DNA from: Escherichia phage P896
Strand: one strand, 5' to 3'
Sequence record: OL451225.1
Length of the DNA stretch: 64,000 bases
Both the position numbers and the translations under genes were made by a program. Every line of letters starts with the position of its first letter. The first letter of the stretch is position 1. A model generated the notes under the pieces. It was not told the origin of the DNA and searched no databases. It worked only from the letters and a program-made list of their open reading frames with translations. Shown here one piece after another: positions 3,601 through 46,616 of the stretch.

Positions 3601-4484
3601 CTGGCTCATCTAAATACGTTCCTTTAATTAAGCAACGTTATAAAGATGGGACATTTACCTTTGGTACATTGATAAATGAACCTACCTCAAATGATGAAGG
3701 TGCTTTTGTTCTTCATTATATAGATGCAGTAAAAACCCAGCGTAAATGGACCTTTAGACGGAATGGTGATTTAGAAATAACTGCAGGTAATTTCGTTATT
3801 GGTAATGGGTCTGCTGTAATTAATGGTGGTCTTAATGTTACTAAAGCTTCTGGTATTACAACCACTGGGCTAGTTGCCAATAGTGAATCCAGATTCGAAG
3901 GTGCTGTTGCTATTAACAACTTCCTTACGGTAAGCAACAAAGCTACACTTAACAACGGCTTAGCTGTTCAGAAATATGCAAGGGTTACAGGCGATAAGAC
4001 TTCTGACATCTATAACAGAAAACCTACAATGGATACTGTCGGCTTCTGGTCCGTTGATATCGATGACCCTGCTACATATAATCAGTTCCCGGGCTATTTC
4101 AAAATGGTCGAAAAGACTAACGAAGTAACTGGTCTGCCTTATTTGGAGCGTGGTGAAGAAGTTAAATCACCTGGCACATTGACTCAGTTTGGCAACACGC
4201 TGAATTCACTCTATCAAGACTGGATTACTTATCCGAATACTGCTAATGCCAGCACCACTCGTTGGACTCGTACATGGCAGCAGAACAAAAACGCGTGGTC
4301 TGGTTTTGTTCAGGTCTTTGATGGAGGTAACCCACCTCAGCCGTCGGATATTGGTGCATTGCCTGCTGATAACGCTTCGATGAGTAACCTGACTATCAGG
4401 GATTGGTTAAGAATCGGTAACGTACGTATTGTTCCGGACCCAGTAACCAAATCCGTTAAATTCGAATGGATTGATACACCATAA
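609..4484 (+). CDS. 34: Long tail fiber proximal subunit gp34
   Basis: 1291 aa ORF (T4 gp34 about 1289 aa); first gene of a 34-35-36-37-38 block; repetitive fibrous sequence (RxxGIARIAxxAE-type repeats). Confidence 0.9.
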   Translation: MADILKPAFRATSGLDAAGEKVINVAKADYSVLSDGVNVDFFIEENTVQQYDATRGYKKNFAVINDNRIWVAQRDIAAPAGTFTPQYWLATRTDPKWETVASPTRQLSSGEFIAVDSAASFTTFTLPPNPTDGDTIVIKDIGGNTGYNEIKVQSSNVPGQGNQKIVRFGNQFTEILISKPFSYNMLIFSNRLWQFWEAGNEERGIRIEPSSGKYRTQASDFIMRHYTTAEKITFILPKYANQGDIIKSVDIDGLGPLYHLDVETFDESSSLGKQGQHSMEFRTTGDGFFVYNATEKLWVTWDGDNKTRLRVIRDNVKLLPNESIIVFGNDNNTAQTINIDLPTGVRPGDVVKIALNYLRKAQTVNIKASGTDKIASSVQLLQFPKRSEYPPDTEWVLVDSLTFNGNISYTPVIELSYMEDTDKGINYWVVAQNVPTVERVDSKDDLTRARLGVIALANQAQANVDHENNPEKELAITPQTLANRVATESRRGIARIANTAQVNQDTTFAFQDDIIISPKKLNERTATETRRGLAEIATQQETDAGTDDTTIITPRKLQARQGSESLSGIVKYVPTTGTTPAASRITVGTNVYNKNTTTLVISPKALDQYKADQNNQGAVYLATQSEVNAGATNTGFSNSVVTPETLGARRATDSNHGLIEIATQAETNAGTDYTRAVTPKTLNDRKASESLSGIAEIATQSEFDTGTDDTRIATPLKIKTRLNNTARTSVIAASGLVETGTLWDHYTLNILEANETQRGTARLATQLEVNTGTDDKTIVTPLKLMSKKATESTEGIVRIATRAETITGTSSILAVSPVSLKWIAQSEPTWAATTTTRGFAKMSEGAITFVGNATAGSTQALDLYEKNSYAISPYELNKTLGNFLPRLAKAADSDKLDNLDSTQFIRRDVAQDINANMTFKQPVRIESTLTVTGVVNLSGSVTSNNTTLTGATAINSNSTVGALNYIEFTSESQGAGTWNSQHDSNVKAPVFLNITTPSGSSKYVPLIKQRYKDGTFTFGTLINEPTSNDEGAFVLHYIDAVKTQRKWTFRRNGDLEITAGNFVIGNGSAVINGGLNVTKASGITTTGLVANSESRFEGAVAINNFLTVSNKATLNNGLAVQKYARVTGDKTSDIYNRKPTMDTVGFWSVDIDDPATYNQFPGYFKMVEKTNEVTGLPYLERGEEVKSPGTLTQFGNTLNSLYQDWITYPNTANASTTRWTRTWQQNKNAWSGFVQVFDGGNPPQPSDIGALPADNASMSNLTIRDWLRIGNVRIVPDPVTKSVKFEWIDTP

Positions 4485-4492
4485 GAGGTATT

Positions 4493-6341: not shown

Positions 6342-9300
6342 ATGGCTACTTTAAAATCGATACAATTTAAAAGAAGTAAAACACCAGGAGCCAAGCCTAC
6401 TGCAGCTCAGTTAGATGAAGGCGAACTGGCTATTAACTTGCGTGACCGTACTATTTTTACCAAGTCAGACCAGGGACAGATTATTGATTTAGGCTTTGCT
6501 AAAGGTGGTACTATTGATGGTGATGTGACTATTAATGGTAAATTTACTTTAAATGGTGCGCATGTTCAGACATTAGGTGGTATTAATACTACTGGCGGAA
6601 TTTATTCCGGCGCGGATGTGAGTGCATTGATTTATCGTGCTCGAAATGGTTCGTTTTATTCTAGAGCGTCGAATGATACTTCTAATGCTCATTTGTGGTT
6701 TGAAAATACCAACGGTTCTGAACGCGGTGTTTTATATGCCAAACCCCAGCTTGAAAATGAAGGCGTAATTACCATGCGCGTTCGCCAGGGTACTGCTGCC
6801 GGTGCGCAAAATTCAGAGTTCCATTTTATTTCTAATGATGGTGGTATTTTCCAGGCACGCAAATTAACTGCTTTAACTTCTATTAGTACACCAACTATTA
6901 GTGTTAATTTAATTAATCATGATTCAAAAACATTTGGACAATACGACAGTCAATCTTTAGTTAACTACGTATATCCAGGCACCGGCGAAACAAATGGTGT
7001 AAACTATCTTCGTAAAGTTCGAGCTAAATCAGGCGGAACCATTTATCATGAAATTTGTACGGCTCAAACAGATCAGGCAGATGAGGTTTCTTGGTGGTCC
7101 GGTAATACACCATCATTTAAATTATATGGTATTCGTAATGACGGCCGAATGATCGTCCGCAATAGCGTAGCCATCGGGACCGTGACTGCAGGATACCCGT
7201 CAAGCGACTATGGTAATGGTGCCGCTTTAGGATTCGGTGTTTATTTAGCTCTAGGCGATAACGGGACGGGGCTGTCATACAAAAAAACCGGTGTATTTGA
7301 TTTAGTTGGTTCAGGGAATTCTGTCGCATCTATTACTCCAGATAGTTTCCGTAGTACTCGTAAAGGTATATTTGGTTGTTCAGAAGACCAAGGCACCACA
7401 TGGATTATGCCTGGCACTAATGCCGCTTTCTTGTCTGTTCAAACACAAGCTGATAATAACAATGCTGGAGACGGACAAACTCATATTGGATACAATGCTG
7501 GCGGTAAAATGAGTCATTATTTCCGCGGTAAAGGCAAAACTAATATTAATACTCAGGAAGGTGTAGACGTTAACCCTGGTATATTGAAGTTAACCACCGG
7601 CAGTGAAAGTATTAGCTTTAATGCCGCAACTGGAAGTATTAATTCTACATTAGCTTTTCGTCTTAATAAAGGCATAATTATTGACGGACCTGATAATCAG
7701 GGATTCCAGTTTAACGCCCCGACGGCCGCAGATGGTACTAGAAGTATATACTGGAATAGTGGTACTCTCGCAGGTCAAAACAAAAACCCTGTTACAGTTA
7801 AAGTGTGGGGTAATTCATTTAACGCATCTGGTGATCGTAATCGTGAAACCGTTTTTGAAGTAGCTGATGGGCAAGGTTATTATTTTTACGCTCAACGTAC
7901 TAATCCTGCATCAGGTCAAACGGTAGGTCCGGTCAACTTTAAATTTAACGGAACTGTCGAAACAGGTCATATCATAGGCCTTGGAAATATAAGTGCCTCC
8001 GGTACAGGTTCTTTCGGTGGCAATGTTACCATGTCTAATGGTTTGTTTGTCCAAGGTGGTTCTTCTATTACTGGACAAGTTAAAATCGGCGGAACAGCAG
8101 ATGCATTAAGAATTTGGAATGCTGAATATGGCGCTATTTTCCGTCGTTCAGAAAGTAACTTTTATATTCTTCCAACCAATCAAAATGAAGGCGAAAGTGG
8201 AGACATTCACAGCTCTTTGAGACCTGTGAGAATAGGATTAAACGATGGCATGGTTGGGTTAGGAAGAGATTCTTTTATAGTAGATCAAAATAACGCTTTA
8301 ACTACAATAAACAGTAACTCTCGCATTAATGCCAACTTTAAAATGCAATTGGGACAGTCGACATACATTTATGCAGAATGTACTGATGCTGTTCGTCCAG
8401 CAGGGTGTGGTTCCTTTGCATCACAGAATAATGAAAACGTCCGTGCTCCGATTTATATGAATATAGAGCGTACTGCTACTTCTGAATATATTCCTATTGT
8501 TAAACAGCGGTATGTTAAGGGTAACGGTTGCTATTCATTAGGGACTTTAATTAATAATGGTAACTTTAGAGTTCATTATCATGGTGGCGGAGATAATGGT
8601 TCAACAGGACCACAGACAGCTGATTTTGGATGGGAATTTATTAAAAACGGTGATTTTATTTCTCCTGGTAGAATTATTGCCGGTGCTGCTATTCTTGGCA
8701 CTGATGGTAATATCACCGGTGGCTCTGGTAACTTTGCTAACTTAAACAGTACAATTGAATCACTTAAAACTGATATTGTTTCAAGTTATCCTATTGGAGC
8801 CCCAATTCCATGGCCAACGGATACTCCTCCTAATGGTTATGCTTTGATGGAAGGTCAGACCTTTGATACTGCAGCTTATCCTAAGCTCGCTATCGCATAT
8901 CCTACAGGTACTATTCCGGATATGCGTGGACAAACTATCAAGGGTAAGCCAAGTGGGCGTGCTGTGTTGAGTGCAGAAGCTGATGGTATTAAGTCCCATA
9001 CCCATGGTGCATCTGCTTCGAGTACTGACTTGGGCACTAAAACCACATCAAGCTTTGATTATGGCACTAAAACATCTTCAAGCTTTGATTATGGTACTAA
9101 AACTACCAACACCACAGGTAACCATAACCATAGTGTTAGTGGTAATACCAACACCACAGGTAACCATAGCCATAGAGATGGACGTCGATTTAACCCCAGT
9201 ATTTTTAAAGATACTTATCAATATGGTTATACAAGCTCAGGTCAAAATAACTGGGGTGTACAAGGCTCAGTAGGTATGTCTATGGGGTGGTTAGCGAATA

Positions 9301-11301: not shown

Positions 11302-11583
11302 TCAATCAATATAATATTCTAGACCAAAATCATCAATTTCTTCTTGAATTTCTCTTAATACTTGTTCTTCATCTAGACCAGACCCAAAAGTTACTTTAGC
11401 ATAACCTGGACGTTCACAAGAGAACCGAATTGTGTATTCCGGTTGGATATATCCAAAACTACTATCCAAATCACAAAGAATTTCTGCATAGATTTCGTCG
11501 CCGACAGCAGCATGAATTTTAAAAAGTTCATCAATGAGAATAACTAGTTCAGTTGCTTCGTACGTATGGAGTTTAGTAATCAT
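11302..11583 (-). CDS. arn: Acidic small protein, Arn-like (anti-restriction, DNA mimic) by size and position
   Basis: 93 aa, strongly acidic (many D/E), between asiA and motA; T4 Arn is about 92 aa. Assignment is by size, position and charge only. Confidence 0.45.
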   Translation of the reverse strand: MITKLHTYEATELVILIDELFKIHAAVGDEIYAEILCDLDSSFGYIQPEYTIRFSCERPGYAKVTFGSGLDEEQVLREIQEEIDDFGLEYYID

Positions 11584-12748: not shown

Positions 12749-13357
12749 TCACTTTAAGATGTTAATAACATGTTGAATGTTTTCAGTTGACATAACGTTG
12801 TCAATGTAGGTATTCAATCCACCTACTTTAACGCTAAATCCCACGTCTGTAAACTGTTTTACTATCTTTTGTTCAGTATTATACGCATGCACACGAATCT
12901 GACCATCACGACGTACATCAATCTGTTTTAATGTCTTGATACGTTTGAACTTCACAATCAGATTGCTGCGGTCTTCTGAAATGCTCTTAAAGTCAATACC
13001 AATAGACAACAATTGCTCTTTGATATATTCTGCAGTCGCTTCCATTTCATCAGTCACACCGCGTTTTGTTCTTGTCTTTTTCACTTCCAGAAGGTCAGGA
13101 TTATTTTCATTCGCCCAAAGTTCAGCTGCATCCAGAATAAGGTCAACGCCTTTTTCTGTAACCATCAAACCATCACCAGAAGCTTCAACATAGTTGTTAT
13201 TCAACAAGGTCTGTACGCTATCAATTGATGTGTTCTGCTGGTCTAAAACAACCTCTGGACTCACGAAGTTGTTTTTGTATACAAACACCAGAGCATTGAC
13301 ATCAGTCTCATGCAGCGCGTTCTGGGAGCATTTAACGATATAATTTAACTTGTTCAC
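12749..13357 (-). CDS. motA: Middle transcription activator MotA (candidate)
   Basis: 202 aa (T4 MotA 211 aa); between the asiA/arn block and gene 52 as in T4; divergent from the T4 sequence I recall, so partly positional. Confidence 0.6.
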   Translation of the reverse strand: MNKLNYIVKCSQNALHETDVNALVFVYKNNFVSPEVVLDQQNTSIDSVQTLLNNNYVEASGDGLMVTEKGVDLILDAAELWANENNPDLLEVKKTRTKRGVTDEMEATAEYIKEQLLSIGIDFKSISEDRSNLIVKFKRIKTLKQIDVRRDGQIRVHAYNTEQKIVKQFTDVGFSVKVGGLNTYIDNVMSTENIQHVINILK

Positions 13358-15563: not shown

Positions 15564-16013
15564 TTAATAGCTCTGCAAAATGAATTTAAAGTTATCAGCA
15601 AGCATGCGATTCATTTCTGAAAGGGTCTGACAATCAGAACTATGTGAGCGAGTGAACGCCATCGCAATTTGACCTTTACCATAACCAGTTGTCAGAGATT
15701 TCATTTTAGAAACTGGGACAAACAGGACTTCATAGATAACACCATTGTTCGCCATTGTGCGAGACAGTTGAGAACGCTGTTTGCGGATGTGACTTAACAC
15801 AGTGTCAAACCCTTGTTGTGAACGTTGGTTACCAACATAAAAACGTGCCGCAACAATACGTGATTCACCTTCACCTTTAACCACGAAATAAAAACCTGGC
15901 TGGGCGATAGCTTCTTTAGTTGGACGCCCTGCAACATAATTACCATTATGGATGTAAGCAACAGTGGTAGCGCCGGCATTCAGTACGTCACGACGGGTCA
16001 TGTAAGTAGTCAT
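15564..16013 (-). CDS. ndd: Nucleoid disruption protein Ndd (candidate)
   Basis: 149 aa (T4 Ndd about 151 aa), immediately upstream of stp and ac as in T4. Confidence 0.6.
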
Positions 16014-18101: not shown

Positions 18102-18695
18102 TCAGCTTGTAAACCGGTGATAGGGAAATTTTTCTTCTGAACAAGAACGGAGGTACCAGCCATCCCCTTGTGACTTCTGCACAAGACCAGACTCAGGAAC
18201 GAAAGCACCAGGTCCAGCAAGGAATTTTGGTTTAAATCTATAACCTTTGAGAGTCTCTTTTACATCGAGCATAATCATAAGGTCAGCAAGCTTGTGTTGC
18301 ATAAAAGGACCAAGATTGACCCCGTAACCATGCGGATAATCGCCCTGGTGACCAGTATGCACGGATATCCATTTGGAACCGGACTGATGAGTCTTGACTT
18401 CAATTCTTACGCCTTCTTTCGAAACTACATCAAATGCAAAGGAATAAGGATTATCGTAATCTTCATCACCGCCGCATAAAAAACCGGAGGTCCATTTGGC
18501 AATAGCTTGTTCAGCCATTGTGGCCACCATACATCTTTGCATGACTTGCTCACGGTCCTGACCTGGGTCTTTACGCAATGAATACCTGGCCGTGTCTACA
18601 ATCTTCTGCAGGGATTCAGGGGTTAAGTCTTCCTTCGTATAAAGAAAGGAGGGCATCTTTTTCAGATGCTCCCATGTTTTACTCTTCTGAATCAT
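18102..18695 (-). CDS. denB: Endonuclease IV DenB (candidate, by size and position)
   Basis: 197 aa ORF (T4 DenB about 185 aa) located before rIIB as in T4; no motif-level confirmation. Confidence 0.45.
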   Translation of the reverse strand: MIQKSKTWEHLKKMPSFLYTKEDLTPESLQKIVDTARYSLRKDPGQDREQVMQRCMVATMAEQAIAKWTSGFLCGGDEDYDNPYSFAFDVVSKEGVRIEVKTHQSGSKWISVHTGHQGDYPHGYGVNLGPFMQHKLADLMIMLDVKETLKGYRFKPKFLAGPGAFVPESGLVQKSQGDGWYLRSCSEEKFPYHRFTS

Positions 18696-26120: not shown

Positions 26121-26612
26121 TTAGGCAAAATGAATATCAGCATACTCAACGATAAAGCTTTCAGGAACAACCTTAAAGGTTCCAAGGAACACAATATTAT
26201 ACAATTTAACCCCTTCTTCAACCCACTGGTCGGTGATGTAACCGGACATACTAGTGGTTTCATAAGTCGGACCATACATGCAATTGTATTCAAACGGTTT
26301 AGGTGAAACAAAAAAGACACCTTTGCCCAATTTCCATTTAAAATCAACCCCAACATGAGACTGGTCAATGGTTTCAACGTCTTCGGCCACAGGAGCGATG
26401 TACCCAGTAAATTCGGTTGATTCCAGGAATTTAGGATGCACATAAGCCAATTGAGTTTCAGTCTGACCATGTTTAGGAATAATACGCACTTTAACTTCTT
26501 TAATTCCGCCTACTAAATTAGTGCGAAGACTCACAACCTCAACAAAACGACCAGCCGCTTTAGAACGAGATTCTTTAGAAACACGTACAATATCACCAGC
26601 TTCAACTTTCAT
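26121..26612 (-). CDS. Hypothetical protein (MotB-position; paralogous C-terminal domain with 26689..27444)
   Basis: 163 aa; C-terminus GYITDQWVEEGVKLYNIVFLGTFKVVPESFIVEY resembles the C-terminus of the adjacent 251 aa protein. Confidence 0.55.
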   Translation of the reverse strand: MKVEAGDIVRVSKESRSKAAGRFVEVVSLRTNLVGGIKEVKVRIIPKHGQTETQLAYVHPKFLESTEFTGYIAPVAEDVETIDQSHVGVDFKWKLGKGVFFVSPKPFEYNCMYGPTYETTSMSGYITDQWVEEGVKLYNIVFLGTFKVVPESFIVEYADIHFA

Positions 26613-30302: not shown

Positions 30303-31046
30303 TTAACCTCTAATCAGTTTAAAAATTGACGCGTTCAAAGGTAGACCTTTTTTCAGTTTAAGGCGGTCAATGAATGACAACTTATCTAAACGCTCCAGAC
30401 CTTGAATAATTTTATCATACATATCGTAACGCGTTTCAGCGTCAGATGATTTCATTTTCAGACGCCAGTCAGGACCGCCCATAACCATTTTCAGTCCACG
30501 TTGACTAGTTCCGATGGAAGCCATTTGTCCATGGATACGAGCCTTGACTGCAATCACAGAAGGGGTGGTATCTTTAGCGCCACTTTTATAAAGCTCTTTT
30601 AAATGTTTTTGACGCTTCTTGATTCCACGTTCGGTATCTTTAATATTTTTAACAATTTTGCGAATTTTATAATAGTCAGCAGGAGTTACTTTAAAACTAT
30701 TGGGCATCTTAGAACCACCATTAATACGCACCGCCAAACGAGTCTGTGCACGTTTAAGTTCATCAAGAGATAAATCAGCACGTAAACCGTTGTACTTAGT
30801 TTTGACAGGGATAACATTGCCTTCAATATAACCTATATCATTGTTAAAGCGTTCAAAGGAAACTTTATCTTGAGTTGAATTTTCATCAAAACGTTCACCA
30901 GAATACGCACAGAATTCTTGTTTCAAAAGATTGGCGATATACTTACTAGACAGATTGAAATCCTTGTTACGACGTTTTGCAGACGTTTTGGTATGCTCGC
31001 GACGTTTGTAAACTTTTAATTCAAACTCTTCTTTTGACATATTCAT
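30303..31046 (-). CDS. Srd-like protein (by size and position)
   Basis: 247 aa basic protein between dda.1 and the ART genes, where T4 carries srd (about 250 aa); no motif confirmation. Confidence 0.4.
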   Translation of the reverse strand: MNMSKEEFELKVYKRREHTKTSAKRRNKDFNLSSKYIANLLKQEFCAYSGERFDENSTQDKVSFERFNNDIGYIEGNVIPVKTKYNGLRADLSLDELKRAQTRLAVRINGGSKMPNSFKVTPADYYKIRKIVKNIKDTERGIKKRQKHLKELYKSGAKDTTPSVIAVKARIHGQMASIGTSQRGLKMVMGGPDWRLKMKSSDAETRYDMYDKIIQGLERLDKLSFIDRLKLKKGLPLNASIFKLIRG

Positions 31047-34618: not shown

Positions 34619-34900
34619 TTACAATTTGGCGGCTTGGACTGCTTTATTGGCTTCAGTCATTTTAGCTAGATTTTCAGCAGTAGGATTGGCAATGTATTCG
34701 GCTGTAGCTTGAGCAAAAACATTATGAGTTTCGATTACATTTTTAGCATTTTCAGTATTCATATCAATTTCTTGTTTAGATAAATTTTTTAGTTGATTGG
34801 CTAAGAGTTCTACAAAGATTTCAACATTAGCGTTTTCAATTATAGCATTAATATGCTTCTTACGAGCTTTCTTAAGTTGACGTTTATTTAAACGAGCCAT
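34619..34900 (-). CDS. Hypothetical protein (soc.1 position)
   Basis: 93 aa ORF in track. Confidence 0.45.
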   Translation of the reverse strand: MARLNKRQLKKARKKHINAIIENANVEIFVELLANQLKNLSKQEIDMNTENAKNVIETHNVFAQATAEYIANPTAENLAKMTEANKAVQAAKL

Positions 34901-35418
34901 TAATAACCTCGGTCTTGGCGAGCAAAGTTCTCGGCATTTTTCAGGTAATACAGTTTAAAGATTTCTTCTGCTGTCAGACCAAGACCATGGAACATATTCA
35001 GAACAAAGTGCAGGATATCAATCATTTCGAATTTAATTTCGAGCTGGTCTTCAGGAGACAATTCATCAATACGACGATTACGGAATTCAGCATGTTGCGC
35101 TTTCCACGGCTTCCAGCAACTGGATGCGGCTTTCTCACCATTAGACATGCCACCGAGCGAAGTCAGAAGTTCACGGAATTCGTCGTCGACATAATCTTTC
35201 TGGTTACGAAGCCATGCAACAACATCGCCTGCGGTTGCCAATTCATCTGGATGTGTGTTATATTCTGGTTTTTCTGTAGCCAGACGAACCTGCAAAGATT
35301 TCTGCATATCAAGCATAATCTGCAGAGGGTCATCATTGCCTTTTAGGACATCATTATACGCATCTTGCGCTTTATCAACACCAGCAATCAGTTGAGAACA
35401 CTCGTTAAAATGAGCCAT
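34900..35418 (-). CDS. 56: dCTP pyrophosphatase (dCTPase/dUTPase) gp56
   Basis: Track ORF 34900..35436; likely start at ATG 35418 (MAHFNECSQLIAGVDKAQ...); MAHFNEC, DPLQ.MLDMQ, ETAGDVV.W, IDDEFRELLTSLG, SPEDQLEIKFE..DI.HFVLNMF and EEIFKLYYLKN.ENFARQDRGY blocks match T4 gp56 as I recall it. Confidence 0.88.
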   Translation of the reverse strand: MAHFNECSQLIAGVDKAQDAYNDVLKGNDDPLQIMLDMQKSLQVRLATEKPEYNTHPDELATAGDVVAWLRNQKDYVDDEFRELLTSLGGMSNGEKAASSCWKPWKAQHAEFRNRRIDELSPEDQLEIKFEMIDILHFVLNMFHGLGLTAEEIFKLYYLKNAENFARQDRGY

Positions 35419-41350: not shown

Positions 41351-41679
41351 CTCTTTTTCATTTTAATTTTATCAATTTCATCTTGTATTTGCATTGTAAC
41401 ACACTTTTCTACATGCACAGCAAGCTCCGCTTTGCGGTCTTCAGAAGGGGTGCCGAAATCAACTGAAACTTTTCCAGATGGTTCAATTTTAATTCCGGTT
41501 ACGTACACAATGTGACTGGACCCATCAGGGAGTGATAACAGAATTTCCTGCCGTACAGTTCCCATGGATTGCCGGATAATCTCCAAACTTTTTTCGTAGT
41601 AAGGTACAGAAGGAGCCTTAGCTCCCTCCGCATCTTTCTCGAAATTATCTAAATCAGATAAATCGATATCATTCATCAA
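41335..41679 (-). CDS. 40: gp40 (head vertex assembly chaperone)
   Basis: 114 aa ORF between uvsX and 41 as in T4. Confidence 0.7.
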   Translation of the reverse strand: MMNDIDLSDLDNFEKDAEGAKAPSVPYYEKSLEIIRQSMGTVRQEILLSLPDGSSHIVYVTGIKIEPSGKVSVDFGTPSEDRKAELAVHVEKCVTMQIQDEIDKIKMKKRWWKW

Positions 41680-42847
41680 GGTCTTCCATCATATCTAAAT
41701 CGTTTTCGATATCTGCCGCAGACGGTTTTGTCTTACCTTCAGGAGCAGTGTATTTTTCAACCTTGGAGGCAATAAGCGCATCAACTTCGGCATCAACAAC
41801 AGCATTGCTATCGATTGCACCCAGTTGGTAATGGCGTTTGATTGCATCACGGAAAGGTTCGTGCTTGAACAGCGGGCCCCAGAATTCGGTGCAGTTAGTA
41901 TCTTTTGCGCGCCATGATTTTTCTTCGCGGACCATTTCACCGGTCTCAACATCAAGATATTCACGGTTATACCAACCAACTTTTGGTTTCACCACAAATC
42001 CGATTTCCATTGCCATATCAAGCAGGCCAGAATACGGGTCAATACCCCCATCGAATTTTACATCAATGAAGAATTTACTTTTCTCTTTGACCATACGAGA
42101 TTTTTCGGCGTTCAGAACAAATTGGAAGCCTTCAAGTTCTTTACCAGTTTCTTTAATCTGGCGTTTGCCGATAATGAATACGGTGTCCGCAGAATACATA
42201 ACACCTGTACCGCCGGTCATAACGGTTTTACTGTACATCTCAATCGTCTCGATTGTATGGTTAACCGCGACACAAGGAATATCCTTGATGCTAAAATACG
42301 GGGTAACAATACGGAACAGAGATTTCAGGGATTTGGCACGAGTCATATCACCAACGACTTTTTCGTTCATCGCATCTTCTGTTTCTTTTTTCGACGCCAT
42401 GTTACCGATTGAGTCAATAAAAATAATGACTTTTTCACCACGCTCAATTGCTTCAAGCTGGTTAACCATATCAACTTTCAATTGTTCAACCGACTGGATT
42501 GGTGTATGGATAACACGTTCCGGGTCAACTTTCATTGCACGAAGATATGCTTCTGTGATACCAAATTCTGAATCATAGAACAAACAGATTGCATCGGGGT
42601 ATTTGTTCATATATGCAGAGACCATCGTTAAACCCATATTGGATTTAAAGTGTTTTGACGGACCAGCAAAAATAGTCAAACCTGACTGCATACCACCATC
42701 TAGTGCACCGCTGATTGCAATGTTCAGCATCGGGATTTTTGTACGAACTACATCTTTACCATTAAAGAACTTGGACTTGGTAAGAGTCGCGGTCATTTTG
42801 GATGTAGAAGCTTTAATCAAACGGGATTTCAAATCTGCAATAGACAT
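41669..42847 (-). CDS. uvsX: Recombinase UvsX (RecA-like)
   Basis: 392 aa (T4 UvsX 391 aa); Walker A GPSKHFKS and RecA-fold blocks. Confidence 0.92.
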   Translation of the reverse strand: MSIADLKSRLIKASTSKMTATLTKSKFFNGKDVVRTKIPMLNIAISGALDGGMQSGLTIFAGPSKHFKSNMGLTMVSAYMNKYPDAICLFYDSEFGITEAYLRAMKVDPERVIHTPIQSVEQLKVDMVNQLEAIERGEKVIIFIDSIGNMASKKETEDAMNEKVVGDMTRAKSLKSLFRIVTPYFSIKDIPCVAVNHTIETIEMYSKTVMTGGTGVMYSADTVFIIGKRQIKETGKELEGFQFVLNAEKSRMVKEKSKFFIDVKFDGGIDPYSGLLDMAMEIGFVVKPKVGWYNREYLDVETGEMVREEKSWRAKDTNCTEFWGPLFKHEPFRDAIKRHYQLGAIDSNAVVDAEVDALIASKVEKYTAPEGKTKPSAADIENDLDMMEDLDE

Positions 42848-42932
42848 TCATTTTTTCCATAGGCACCATCATATTTTTCTCACAGGTTTAAGATATGATA
42901 ATTATATCACTGTATTTTTAGAGCAATTAATG

Positions 42933-43436
42933 TTAGTTAATACCTTGGCGTGCTTTCTCTTTAGCTACACATTTATTAATATAGCTCAGACGGTTTTGAG
43001 CAGAACGCTGATACATATCGCGGTACTCATTAGCTTTTGGAGAACCCGTCTCCGCTGCCTGATAAGCTTCTGCGCGCATGATGTTTATCTGCATATTGAT
43101 ATATGACATGCAGACCTGCGAAATCTGGTTAACAGTATCCAGGTCATTTTGTCGCTTGGTTTCTGCTTCCAGCTTGGCAATGATTTCGTCATGCTTCGCA
43201 GCTTGCTCGCGTTTGTACTCAATTTCTTGTTGAGCATATTTCGCGCAGTTGTTTCCACATTGATTGTTGTCGCGTTTGTAGATAAGTCCAGTACCACCTT
43301 TGAAATCAAAGGAACCATTATGCACCTGACGGTCTGCAGCAATTCGCGCTTTACCAATCTCGTTGGCATTAACAACATCACCCTGGTAAGCACAACCAGA
43401 TAGCAGCATAACAGCTGCGATAGCTAACTTTTTCAT
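42933..43436 (-). CDS. Lipoprotein with coiled-coil region
   Basis: Track ORF 42933..43463; likely start at ATG 43436 (MKKLAIAAVMLLSGC..., SD GAGGA); it occupies the interval where T4 carries beta-gt and gene 42. Confidence 0.55.
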   Translation of the reverse strand: MKKLAIAAVMLLSGCAYQGDVVNANEIGKARIAADRQVHNGSFDFKGGTGLIYKRDNNQCGNNCAKYAQQEIEYKREQAAKHDEIIAKLEAETKRQNDLDTVNQISQVCMSYINMQINIMRAEAYQAAETGSPKANEYRDMYQRSAQNRLSYINKCVAKEKARQGIN

Positions 43437-43446
43437 TGTATTTTCC

Positions 43447-43590
43447 TCAATTAAAACATTCATAGCGGGCTTGGAGCCCCAAAAATACCCAACCCAAAAT
43501 TAAAGTTGGAATCATATGTGGAGTCATTATTGCCCAGTAGATTGACATACTAAAAAATGCAATCAGTACAATAATTGTAATTATCTTCAT
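43447..43590 (-). CDS. Small membrane peptide (imm.1 position)
   Basis: 47 aa MKIITIIVLIAFFSMSIYWAIMTPHMIPTLILGWVFLGLQARYECFN read by hand; ATGA overlap with the imm stop. Confidence 0.4.
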   Translation of the reverse strand: MKIITIIVLIAFFSMSIYWAIMTPHMIPTLILGWVFLGLQARYECFN

Positions 43591-43829
43591 TTTGCTTCCT
43601 TGATGATAATTACTTGTGCATTTGATTTACGTTCAGCAACGAGTGCCCAGATAAATGCAATAAACCATCCGACCATTGTCCAACCTAACAGGAGGTTAAC
43701 AAAGAAGATTCCGCAATTACTTTTGGTTCCACGCAGTAGCGCGATAATCCACGGCAGAAAATATACCAGTGCAGCCAGGAAGAAAGAACCAGCCCCAAGA
43801 ACAACAGTACCCGCAATTAATGCTTCCAT
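43587..43829 (-). CDS. imm: Superinfection immunity protein Imm (membrane)
   Basis: Track ORF 43587..43901; likely start at ATG 43829, giving an 80 aa two-TM protein (T4 Imm 83 aa) directly downstream of gene 43. Confidence 0.7.
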   Translation of the reverse strand: MEALIAGTVVLGAGSFFLAALVYFLPWIIALLRGTKSNCGIFFVNLLLGWTMVGWFIAFIWALVAERKSNAQVIIIKEAK

Positions 43830-43901
43830 TTTAATATCCTCAAGTTTGTAATCAGTAGTTGATGGAACAATCATACGGCAATCCTTTGCCGTTGTAAACA
43901 C

Positions 43902-46616
43902 TTAAAAATCAAACATATCAAAAAGAGTTGCTTTCTTTTCGTAATCAACCTTTGCAGCTTCGGAGAAACCTGTTAATGGCTTAACAAAAGTCTTCTGGAA
44001 CAGTGTGTTGTAGTCCATCCACTGCAGAACCTGGTCACGGATTTCAATCGGGAGTTCAATCCCAGATGGCCATGCAATCACGGTTTCACCAAACGGGTTG
44101 CCGACTTTGAGCGGAAGTACATACACCTTTTCCCCTTCCATGATTTGCGGAACAGTCTTCAGACCTTTAGTTGCACGCATATATGCAAGCACACCTTTGA
44201 TATGAGCCGGACACTTAAATCCAGGGAAACCGCCTTCATTATATTTCTGGATGTTGTTAACCGATGATACACCTGCGATGGTCATGTAGTTAAGCTCATT
44301 AAATTCCTTATTGAATTCCTTGAAGTATGTCTGCAGAGATTCTTCACCTTCTTGCAGCATACGGCGGATACATTCTTTCAGAGCTTTCTGACATGCCTTT
44401 GGAGTACTCGACTTTTGAGTTTCCAGACCCATGATTTTCAGTTTCGGAACAGCATATCGTGTGCCTTCCATATCGTACACGTTCAACGCATAACGCTTCT
44501 TCGCTGTCCAGAATCCACCAACACCCTTCGAACCCAGTGGAGGACATGCAATCGCCTCACGGTCCATAAACATAAGGTGCTGTTTGTTGTTCATGTATTC
44601 AGCCAGCTCACGGAAAGCTTTATCGATTGCCGGTTCCAGACGGTCTTTCGCAAACTTGTCCATGAAGTCAACCAGGTGGTTTGTATCGCGGAATTTAGAT
44701 TCACCACCAACCTTTTTAATCAGGTTATCGCACTGGATATAAATGGAGTCAGTGTCACCATAGAATACGTAGGTTTCGCCGCTTGTCCCACAGACACTAT
44801 CGAAGTATTCGTTAACTTTACGCTCAATCCACTGCAATGCAAGTTGTCCGAAAGATGTAATCGCGGTTGCATTTCGCAGGTCAAAGTAACGGAACCATAT
44901 ATTGCCCAGAGCGCCATAACAACTGTTGATAAGCAGTTTACGGTTAATCTGTGCGGTCATGCCTGCAACTTCTTCCATCTGCGCTTTGTACAGCATACCA
45001 TTTAGGACTGTTTGATTCAGACCATGCAGGGCCGTTTTCATATTGTCATCAAAGTCATGACGATAATCAACTTCAGGCTCGGTTGTACCAGTTCCTGGAT
45101 TACGCAGAGCTTCCTTAATCAGTTCACCATTACGTTGAGCCGCAAGCATATAGCCTTTGTGTTCTTTACGCTGATTAAACACCTTGGTGACTTCTGTCGG
45201 AATAATACCCGCAACATCTTTAAAATACATCATACCATTTGGAGCACAACTAAATGTATCAGATGGACGGTCAGCAGTTCCTGCAATGTATTCGTACATC
45301 GGCGCTGGCGCAAATGACCCGGCAATCGTTTCTGGACTGATGTTAATCTGTCGGATAATGCTTGGATACAGAGATGTTAAGTCACAGCTCATTACATATT
45401 TGTATGCGTTCGGAATCGGTTCCTTAACAAATGCACCAGGGAACGATTGGCGAACATGTGATTTGGTTTCCGGAATGACTTTGTTTTGAGTCTTCAGGCT
45501 GTTAAAGATAATCGCATCCCAAGTTTTGATTGGGCTGAATACAGACTGAATCTGCATTTTTGCATAATAACCCATTGACTGGCTCAGGTTAATAAACTGC
45601 CGCTTACGGTCAATCTGCACAACACGATAAACGTCGATGATGTTATAAGAAATATACCGCTGGTGATTTGATTCACGCAGTTTAGAAATCGGGCCATCAT
45701 ACGGGAGTTTACCAACACCCAGTTCAGATTCCGCAACATAATCCAACGAATAAGACGGTTGGTTTGTGAAGCTGAACTTTTTATACAGGTCCAGATAATC
45801 CAGAACAGAGATACCCAGAATCTGAATGATTTCTTGTTCTTCACCAAAGCCGTTGTTAATGACTTTAACTTTTGTACGACGATGTGGGCTCAGACGTTTT
45901 GCCGTAGCTTCACCAAATACATTTTTAAGGCGGTTGTAGATATATGGAATATCAAACTTCTCGATGTTCCAACCAGTTAACATAACCGGAGTTTTCTCGT
46001 TCCAGAATACCAAATACTGCTGGAGCATTTCTTCTTCTGAATCGAAAGCCATATAAACAATTTTTTCCAGGATTTCTTCCGGGACTTCATCACCACCATC
46101 TTCCTGCAGCTTAGCAGCAATATCAATAGACCATTGCTCCACAGTGGCGTATGGTGAGCCCAAAAGGTCAAAGACATAGAATTTATCGTCTACCGAATCA
46201 TAGTGCGTCAGGGCGTCAATAGGGTGACGTGCTTCAGACGGCTCAGGGAACCCATCAGGAGATGTCACCTCGATATCGAAGTTAGCCACACGGATTTTAC
46301 TTGAATCGTATTTGATTTCGTGCGGGTAACGGTCGGACAAGTATGCGAGTTTAAAGTCGTCCATGCCCATGGCTTCGAGGCCCATGTCATTCATTCGCTT
46401 CATCCACTGGGATGCATCACGCATGGAATCGAATTCTTTTTTCACACAACCTTTATTATAGATGTCTGTATACTTTGCAGCTTGGTCTTCACGGGCGTGC
46501 ATAAACAAGCATGGAGCATAAGGGATTTCACGAACACGTTCATGACCATTCTTGTCAATATATCGTTCGTGTAGGTTGTCACCGATTTGTTCGATAGTTA
46601 AATAAAATTCTTGCAT
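43902..46616 (-). CDS. 43: DNA polymerase gp43 (family B, with 3'-5' exonuclease)
   Basis: 904 aa (T4 gp43 898 aa); exonuclease motifs (FDIEV, YNIIDV) and polymerase motifs (SCYGALG, YGDTDS). Confidence 0.95.
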   Translation of the reverse strand: MQEFYLTIEQIGDNLHERYIDKNGHERVREIPYAPCLFMHAREDQAAKYTDIYNKGCVKKEFDSMRDASQWMKRMNDMGLEAMGMDDFKLAYLSDRYPHEIKYDSSKIRVANFDIEVTSPDGFPEPSEARHPIDALTHYDSVDDKFYVFDLLGSPYATVEQWSIDIAAKLQEDGGDEVPEEILEKIVYMAFDSEEEMLQQYLVFWNEKTPVMLTGWNIEKFDIPYIYNRLKNVFGEATAKRLSPHRRTKVKVINNGFGEEQEIIQILGISVLDYLDLYKKFSFTNQPSYSLDYVAESELGVGKLPYDGPISKLRESNHQRYISYNIIDVYRVVQIDRKRQFINLSQSMGYYAKMQIQSVFSPIKTWDAIIFNSLKTQNKVIPETKSHVRQSFPGAFVKEPIPNAYKYVMSCDLTSLYPSIIRQINISPETIAGSFAPAPMYEYIAGTADRPSDTFSCAPNGMMYFKDVAGIIPTEVTKVFNQRKEHKGYMLAAQRNGELIKEALRNPGTGTTEPEVDYRHDFDDNMKTALHGLNQTVLNGMLYKAQMEEVAGMTAQINRKLLINSCYGALGNIWFRYFDLRNATAITSFGQLALQWIERKVNEYFDSVCGTSGETYVFYGDTDSIYIQCDNLIKKVGGESKFRDTNHLVDFMDKFAKDRLEPAIDKAFRELAEYMNNKQHLMFMDREAIACPPLGSKGVGGFWTAKKRYALNVYDMEGTRYAVPKLKIMGLETQKSSTPKACQKALKECIRRMLQEGEESLQTYFKEFNKEFNELNYMTIAGVSSVNNIQKYNEGGFPGFKCPAHIKGVLAYMRATKGLKTVPQIMEGEKVYVLPLKVGNPFGETVIAWPSGIELPIEIRDQVLQWMDYNTLFQKTFVKPLTGFSEAAKVDYEKKATLFDMFDF

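Follow-up and report, generated by a model that had tools for sequence, protein, structure and literature searches.

In the 64,000-nucleotide stretch of Escherichia phage P896 analyzed here (record OL451225.1; hereafter, the window), the recombinase gene uvsX and the DNA polymerase gene 43 are separated by a compact interval of 1054 bp (42848–43901), in which all genes lie on the minus strand. In every other Tevenvirinae lineage examined, this uvsX–43 slot carries the hydroxymethylcytosine (hmC) cassette, which includes gene 42 for dCMP hydroxymethylase. In the genus Gaprivervirus, to which this phage belongs, the slot is empty between the uvsX middle promoter and a trio of genes encoding a lipoprotein, gp42.1, and Imm, yet the cytosine-destruction machinery is kept. 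This combination is an already published (PMC8056088; PMC12115623) and still unsolved puzzle: a 2021 report described Gaprivervirus as lacking the hmC gene while keeping dCTPase, denA, denB, and alc, and suggested an unknown protein for the synthesis of a non-canonical base (PMC8056088). The interval and its borders comprise:

41669..42847, minus strand: uvsX recombinase gene, left border (Pfam T4_UVSX_C, 3.6e-39; 99.7% amino acid identity to UvsX of Shigella phage SP18)
42848..42932, minus strand: conserved uvsX upstream region, carrying a ribosome-binding site and a predicted middle promoter of the MotA type, in which TATAAT follows a TTGCTCTA box
42933..43436, minus strand: 167-amino-acid (aa) lipoprotein of the T4 Imm.1 family (phrog_1754), starting MKKLAIAAVMLLSGC, with a signal peptide and an LSGC lipobox
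43447..43590, minus strand: 47-aa single-pass membrane peptide, gp42.1 homologue (phrog_3610, 7.6e-27)
43587..43829, minus strand: imm, superinfection immunity membrane protein (Pfam PF14373, 9.4e-18)
43875..43892, minus strand: 7-bp hairpin in the 72-nt spacer upstream of imm, from a pattern scan only and not above chance expectation
43902..46616, minus strand: gene 43 DNA polymerase, right border (99.8% amino acid identity to SP18 gp43)

The sequence-only reading of this DNA had described an interval of about 1.05 kb that contains imm and two further genes, for a lipoprotein of 167 aa and a membrane peptide of 47 aa, and both the coordinates and the content hold. It had also given the T4 order as uvsX, beta-gt, 42, imm, 43; these genes do follow one another in that sequence, but segA and imm.1 had been left out (T4 record: uvsX, segA, beta-gt, 42, imm, imm.1, 43).

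The assignment to Gaprivervirus (Straboviridae, Tevenvirinae) is based on 5.1 kb around the interval, where nucleotide identity is 98.2% to SP18 and 94.2% to VR7, type members of the genus; about 30 further records, all Gaprivervirus, are 94–98% identical over the same region, and the same compact uvsX–43 interval occurs in 32 phage records. The right-hand 25 kb of the window matches SP18 with 97.5% identity and 99% coverage, while the left-hand 25 kb is more mosaic with respect to its relatives, owing to tail-fibre genes.

Searches for the missing genes covered the 64-kb window together with positions 1797–170605 of SP18 (168.8 kb), which make up nearly the entire genome of this closest relative. 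Queried with gp42 from T4, RB5, and VR5, tblastn (E ≤ 10) returned no match in any frame, nor did it with T4 beta-gt, RB5 beta-alpha-gt, and the other proteins of the VR5 cassette at the same threshold, or with T4 alpha-gt and dam at E ≤ 0.01; the alpha-gt.2 to alpha-gt.5 neighbours are present without alpha-gt itself. Hidden Markov models (HMMs) of two kinds, based either on four gp42 sequences alone or on these together with two Td sequences, were searched with --max against all stop-to-stop six-frame fragments of at least 40 aa; they recovered only td in SP18 and nothing in the window, with Dhakavirus VR5 gp42, the positive control, recovered at 5e-132. The statement in the sequence-only reading that neither gene 42 nor a beta-glucosyltransferase gene lies between uvsX and imm is thereby confirmed, and the tblastn and six-frame HMM searches brought out no gene 42 homologue in another frame of the interval, the objection that this reading had raised against itself.

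Two candidates were set aside. SP18 td is the sole gene with a thymidylate-synthase fold that was found, and it could conceivably be a disguised dCMP enzyme or methylase; however, its product carries the dUMP-type Asn in GGNTHIYLNH, and for that reason, together with a full-length thymidylate synthase Pfam match (6e-91), this idea was rejected. Likewise, an 84-bp match upstream of uvsX to records labelled "beta-alpha-gt" is intergenic in RB5 and therefore no glucosyltransferase remnant; it corresponds to the uvsX promoter and ribosome-binding region.

It had further been proposed that gene 42 might sit elsewhere in the genome, and a gene 42 or a horizontally acquired functional analogue in the roughly 106 kb of the phage genome beyond the window is one explanation of the empty slot. 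The best database identity is 98%, and mosaicism is seen in gene 37, srd, and gp56, so that strain-specific cargo is conceivable. Nevertheless, this explanation is barely credible, as neither a gp42-like gene nor a second gene of the thymidylate-synthase fold turned up in the 168.8 kb of SP18, gene 42 is scored as absent throughout the genus in published surveys (PMC8056088; PMC12115623, Table 4, the latter covering 412 genomes of T4-related phages), and the gene-42 lineages examined carry the gene in the very slot that is empty in the window.

What the slot holds in other lineages gives a measure of what Gaprivervirus lacks. In Dhakavirus VR5, five genes spanning 4.2 kb fill the space from the uvsX promoter to the stop codon of the lipoprotein gene, and they are listed individually:

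T4 slot: segA, beta-gt, 42
T2-type RB5 slot: beta-alpha-gt, 42
Kanagawavirus PEi20 slot: nine cassette genes, including 42
VR5 cassette gene: 297-aa protein of unknown function
VR5 cassette gene: gp42, thymidylate-synthase fold (5e-14)
VR5 cassette gene: P-loop kinase-like protein
VR5 cassette gene: 132-aa protein of unknown function
VR5 cassette gene: 557-aa fusion of an NTP-transferase and an APH-kinase, of the RB69 ORF53_52c type (PMC6024577), for sugar-nucleotide synthesis

In RB69 (Mosigvirus), too, the hmC gene module lies between gene 43 and uvsX (PMC6024577). Given gene 42 in this slot in Tequatrovirus, Dhakavirus, and Kanagawavirus, together with the RB69 module, the most economical reading of the distribution among genera, taken without a tree, is that the whole cassette was lost in one piece in the ancestor of Gaprivervirus. 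Homologues of the Dhakavirus cassette proteins were found nowhere else in the SP18 genome by tblastn, and no cassette remnant was found in the window or in congeners with longer spacers. One such congener is VR7, where the stretch at 4249–4489, homologous to window 42848–42932, is longer by about 155 bp, inserted between the promoter of uvsX and the gene for the lipoprotein. This insert was considered as a cassette remnant and rejected: it encodes a 42-aa single-pass membrane peptide with no similarity to cassette genes, and the open reading frame (ORF) is flanked by a short direct repeat, TTAATTNCT. Other congeners have about 100–255 bp of extra length in the 5.1-kb region.

Against this absence stands the retained machinery for cytosine exclusion, of which the window carries the first three genes below; the fourth is an accessory gene discussed further on.

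34900..35418, minus strand: gene 56, intact dCTPase/dUTPase homologue (phrog_173, 3.6e-44)
18102..18656, minus strand: denB (endonuclease IV) homologue, intact but far removed in sequence from its T4 and Dhakavirus counterparts, conserved core and Ser176 kept
15564..16013, minus strand: ndd nucleoid-disruption homologue (60% identity to T4 Ndd, 6e-59)
11302..11583, minus strand: 93-aa predicted homologue of Arn (anti-McrBC DNA mimic), between asiA and arn.2, syntenic with T4 arn and absent from SP18

SP18 carries alc, denA, ndd, gp1, cd, td, and frd; its alc, outside the range of the window, encodes a full-length protein of 167 aa with 55% identity to T4 Alc (4e-60). The dCTPase gp56 that had been reported at 34900..35418 is indeed there, with 70% identity to T4 gp56 and 88% to VR5 gp56, and it keeps every invariant acidic motif residue. 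Gene 56 is itself mosaic: a 60-nt patch (nt 301–360) matches the Dhakavirus VR5 allele at 55 of 60 positions versus 35 of 60 for SP18, which shows that lineages with and without gene 42 exchange gene 56 alleles by recombination. An intact gp56 would drain dCTP, so that the phage would not be expected to package plain cytosine.

DenB differs from the SP18 protein by 17 synonymous and 2 non-synonymous codon differences and is under purifying selection, and it retains its core and Ser176, which we take to be the residue tied to dC-specific cleavage. At the same time, it ranks first for Gaprivervirus-specific divergence in a set of 111 ortholog trios (SP18, VR5, and T4), followed by denV and then MotA: identity to T4 is 45% for the Gaprivervirus protein versus 70% for that of VR5, a 25-point gap where the standard deviation across trios is 8.7, and there is a 13-aa C-terminal extension. 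MotA (window 12749–13357, minus strand) is 33% identical to T4 in Gaprivervirus versus 51% in VR5. Because both proteins contact DNA, their divergence would fit a changed cytosine chemistry. The dNMP kinase gp1 was also considered as a marker, as its identity to the T4 and Dhakavirus proteins is only 45–47%, but the distances among the three lineages are equal, which makes gp1 uninformative; its nearest outside relative (55%) is that of PEi20, a gene-42-positive phage.

The main rival explanation is that these phages simply have ordinary cytosine DNA, with gp56 acting in practice only as a dUTPase or being held in check, DenB and Alc re-tuned, and the published phenotype of VR7, described below, partial or misread. 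The exceptional divergence of DenB and its C-terminal extension count in favour of this explanation. On the other hand, with 83–88% identity to its Dhakavirus counterpart and a patch in common, gp56 is unlikely to have changed specificity, and DenB keeps its core and Ser176 under purifying selection. The genus also keeps alc, denA, and ndd. The cytosine-DNA "pseudo-T-even" phages RB49 (Krischvirus) and RB43 (Pseudotevenvirus) offer a precedent, as they also have no gene 42 or glucosyltransferases and keep gp56 and denA homologues (PMC8056088; PMC12115623), a set thus compatible with cytosine DNA (PMC8056088). However, these phages lack denB and alc (PMC12115623, Table 4) and have cytosine methyltransferases, whereas Gaprivervirus keeps denB and alc and has no recognizable methyltransferase. 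On this evidence and that given below, we regard ordinary cytosine DNA as less likely than not, though it is the strongest of the competing explanations.

The chemistry of Gaprivervirus DNA is addressed by a study of bacteriophage exclusion (BREX), in which DNA was digested with and without T4 beta-glucosyltransferase treatment. According to its text and the legend of its Fig. S4, VR5 DNA is glycosylated, while in VR7 the cytosines are modified and the DNA is unglycosylated (PMC6326788), a report that speaks against ordinary cytosine DNA. The suggestion of the sequence-only reading that the base-modification pathway differs from that of T4 is in agreement with this legend and is supported as far as the sequence goes.

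The fourth gene listed above bears on the same question. Sequence similarity of its product to Arn is marginal, consisting of a weak full-length match to phrog_3151 ("inhibitor of McrBC restriction", E = 0.0076) and a BLASTP comparison with T4 Arn that is not significant. The AlphaFold2 model (predicted local distance difference test score, 83) has T4 Arn (3WX4) as its best match among 350,542 PDB chains (E = 2.9e-4; probability 1.00; template-modelling scores 0.74/0.70), and the protein is, on this structural comparison, a predicted McrBC inhibitor homologous to Arn. Homologues occur in contigs of about 171–172 kb, and the protein is 95% identical to the copy in the Dhakavirus-like phage IME341. 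An Arn-type inhibitor would counter McrBC, a nuclease that attacks methylated or hydroxymethylated cytosine, and is thus useful to a phage with methylated or hydroxymethylated, unglycosylated cytosine DNA; it has no obvious use for unmodified DNA.

GATC is nearly absent, with 4 sites in the window versus about 225 expected and 5 in SP18 versus 587 (observed-to-expected ratio 0.01); the ratio is 0.10 in Dhakavirus VR5 and 0.34 in T4. The four window sites (7071, 7151, 7833, and 8283) all fall within 7071–8286 in gene 37; the product of this gene shares just 54% identity with its SP18 counterpart, and the sites therefore look like recent imports. There is no dam between genes 56 and 61, its position in T4. 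In contrast to GATC, CCWGG and 6-bp palindromes are not avoided, as expected for DNA that is protected from type II enzymes and contrary to what ordinary cytosine DNA would suggest.

Taken together, the exclusion genes, the Arn homologue, and the VR7 restriction phenotype point to a small, non-glycosylated cytosine modification. We estimate the probability at about one in two that Gaprivervirus makes such a modification by means of an unrecognized enzyme and does not package plain cytosine. The modification would be other than glucosylatable hmC, with a chemistry like that of 5-methylcytosine fitting most simply, and it would be made by an enzyme that has no relation to gp42 and escapes current profiles. 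A more specific version, offered tentatively, is a pathway that dispenses with the thymidylate-synthase-fold dCMP hydroxymethylase altogether, in which an enzyme of an unrecognized family makes the small non-glycosylated derivative; DenB and MotA, both diverged, would be adapted to that base, as would the Arn homologue.

Several findings weigh against this reading. No candidate for a replacement enzyme was found. Pfam scans of 20 unannotated SP18 ORFs (146–332 aa) gave no methyltransferase, thymidylate-synthase, or dioxygenase match, and the SP18 ORFs that have no VR5 counterpart are small (under about 170 aa), or are the homing endonuclease segC, tail-fibre or baseplate proteins, or nrdD/nrdG; the tail-fibre assembly protein gp38 is among these Gaprivervirus-specific ORFs. 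In the literature on the Gaprivervirus base, we found no paper that names the modified base or the enzyme. The published evidence for modification consists of the legend to a restriction-digest figure and concerns a different member of the genus, VR7, which the BREX study reports to be fully restricted by BREX, like unmodified phages and unglycosylated, hmC-only T4 (PMC6326788). The Arn homologue, absent from SP18 and 95% identical to the IME341 copy, may be a drifting accessory gene. The near-total avoidance of GATC resembles the complete avoidance reported for phiX174 (abstract of PMC5014478), and gp56 homologues are also found in the cytosine-DNA phages RB49 and RB43 (PMC8056088). Finally, the window covers 64 kb of the source phage genome, with the rest inferred from SP18. 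Of these points, the failure of tblastn, HMM, and Pfam searches of the window and SP18 to find a base-modifying enzyme of a recognizable family, the BREX sensitivity of VR7, the loss of GATC, and the RB49/RB43 precedent also count in favour of ordinary cytosine DNA.

The lack of a nucleotide-level enzyme could be reconciled with the reported modified cytosines if the modification were post-replicative, that is, made on DNA still synthesized with dCTP by an over-diverged enzyme such as a small or split methyltransferase or a conserved T-even protein of unknown function. Many conserved early ORFs without a Pfam function are available for such a role, among them nrdC.4, nrdC.6, gp130, and gp132 (DUF7275/7277). 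However, an active gp56 would remove the dCTP that is needed, the unknown ORFs of at least 200 aa are common to gene-42-positive phages, where they would be redundant, and no S-adenosylmethionine-binding signature was found. We consider this version distinctly improbable; the estimate of one in two given above for a small modification includes, at most, the small share that it deserves.

With the hmC system of T4 and the T-even phages, Gaprivervirus shares gp56, gp1, cd, td, frd, denA, denB, alc, and ndd, present and syntenic, together with, in this phage, the syntenic predicted Arn homologue, as well as the conserved PuvsX promoter, gp42.1, imm, and the Imm.1-family lipoprotein; it differs in lacking gp42, all glucosyltransferases, and dam. 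In Xanthomonas phage XP12, cytosine is completely replaced by 5-methylcytosine through a dCMP methyltransferase of the thymidylate-synthase family. A small non-glycosylated C5 modification of that type would fit the VR7 restriction phenotype, but the window and SP18 contain no second thymidylate-synthase-fold gene, and td has the dUMP-type Asn. The sugar-hmC systems of Dhakavirus (JS98, VR5) and Mosigvirus (RB69) share the genome frame and the flanking genes, and SP18 and VR5 proteins have a median identity of 77%; they differ in that none of the five VR5 cassette genes is found in the window, and VR5 DNA is reported to be glycosylated (PMC6024577; PMC6326788, Fig. S4 legend).

The genes that remain in the interval deserve a description of their own, since the sequence-only reading had stated that a lipoprotein gene sits there instead of the missing genes. 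This wording proved misleading, since the lipoprotein is a member of the Imm.1 family, the peptide is a gp42.1, and both occur together with gene 42 elsewhere, namely, in Dhakavirus VR5, T2-type RB5, and T4. The lipoprotein matches phrog_1754 at 4.9e-47 over residues 10–170 of its 176-aa ORF, and T4 Imm.1, also a lipoprotein, matches the same PHROG at 6.1e-43. The lipobox is LSGC in the former and LAGC in the latter, with 50% identity between the two across the signal peptide and the first mature residues (BLASTP N-terminal match, 3e-06). Identity is 51% to VR5_047 and 42% to PEi20 ORF-050, and all database homologues are likewise 167 aa long. The AlphaFold2 model is confident and helical over residues 65–167, with a long C-terminal helix followed by two shorter ones, and a Foldseek search of it against the PDB gave nothing below E = 1.

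The 47-aa peptide is 52% identical to RB5 gp42.1 (1.4e-12) and is annotated 42.1 in VR7; SP18 gp42.1, identical to the window's in amino acid sequence, is 57% identical to an unannotated T4 ORF (26227–26376) between 42 and imm. The gene order is 42, 42.1, imm, imm.1, 43 in T2/T4-type phages and cassette, lipoprotein, 42.1, imm, 43 in Dhakavirus VR5, while in PEi20 the lipoprotein homologue adjoins gene 43. Since the trio occurs beside gene 42 in other lineages, in varied order, it is best described as a conserved envelope module that neighbours the cassette and is not a substitute for it. Adjacency to imm suggests that the lipoprotein might be an accessory to superinfection exclusion.

At the left end of the interval, an 85-bp spacer (42848–42932) separates uvsX from the lipoprotein gene. 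The stop codon of the latter and the Mot-box-like TTGCTCTA, which is followed by TATAAT, are about 10 nt apart. The uvsX upstream stretch (84 bp) is 82–83% identical to T2/T4-type phages and about 92% identical to Dhakavirus VR5. The element is predicted to be a MotA-type middle promoter from its sequence and from the known organization of the T4 PuvsX promoter. At the right end, the 42.1 ORF (43447–43590) overlaps imm by ATGA. The imm product scores 64.3 bits against PF14373 (gathering cut-off, 27.9) and is 51% identical to T4 Imm over 83 aa, in an alignment that begins at 43829. Because of a GAGG ribosome-binding site and this alignment, and with SP18 annotated likewise, the start is most likely the ATG at 43829 (80 aa) and not the GTG at 43901 that gives the longest ORF, which would leave a 72-nt spacer (43830–43901) between the gene 43 stop codon and imm. 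This spacer contains a sigma-70-like promoter match (TTTACA, 17 nt, TATGAT) that is not above chance by scan.

A few further features of these genomes were noted. The srd homologue at window 30303–31046 (minus strand) is 85% identical to the Dhakavirus VR5 protein and only 49% identical to that of SP18, and appears to be another patch of inter-genus recombination. Between soc and gene 56, a 93-aa ORF (34619–34900, minus strand) has no counterpart in SP18 or VR5, and its N-terminal half matches phrog_5782 ("virion structural protein") at 3.8e-15. In SP18 (42072–42822), a 77-aa ORF in front of alc is a duplicate of the N-terminal part of Alc (64% identity to T4 Alc residues 3–35).

T4 is the textbook case of a phage base swap, through which the phage escapes host restriction and marks host DNA for destruction. 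Under the T4 model, a relative that keeps the destruction and exclusion genes without the base-making enzyme would not be viable. The outcome is thus either a new route to modified cytosine, or a dCTPase, endonuclease IV, and Alc that have been re-tuned to spare cytosine DNA. Owing to this gene-42 paradox, a 2025 survey gave no recommendation for the genus Gaprivervirus. Either answer bears on the DNA chemistry of these phages, on the defence systems that act on them, such as McrBC, BREX, and type IV enzymes, and on their safety in therapy.

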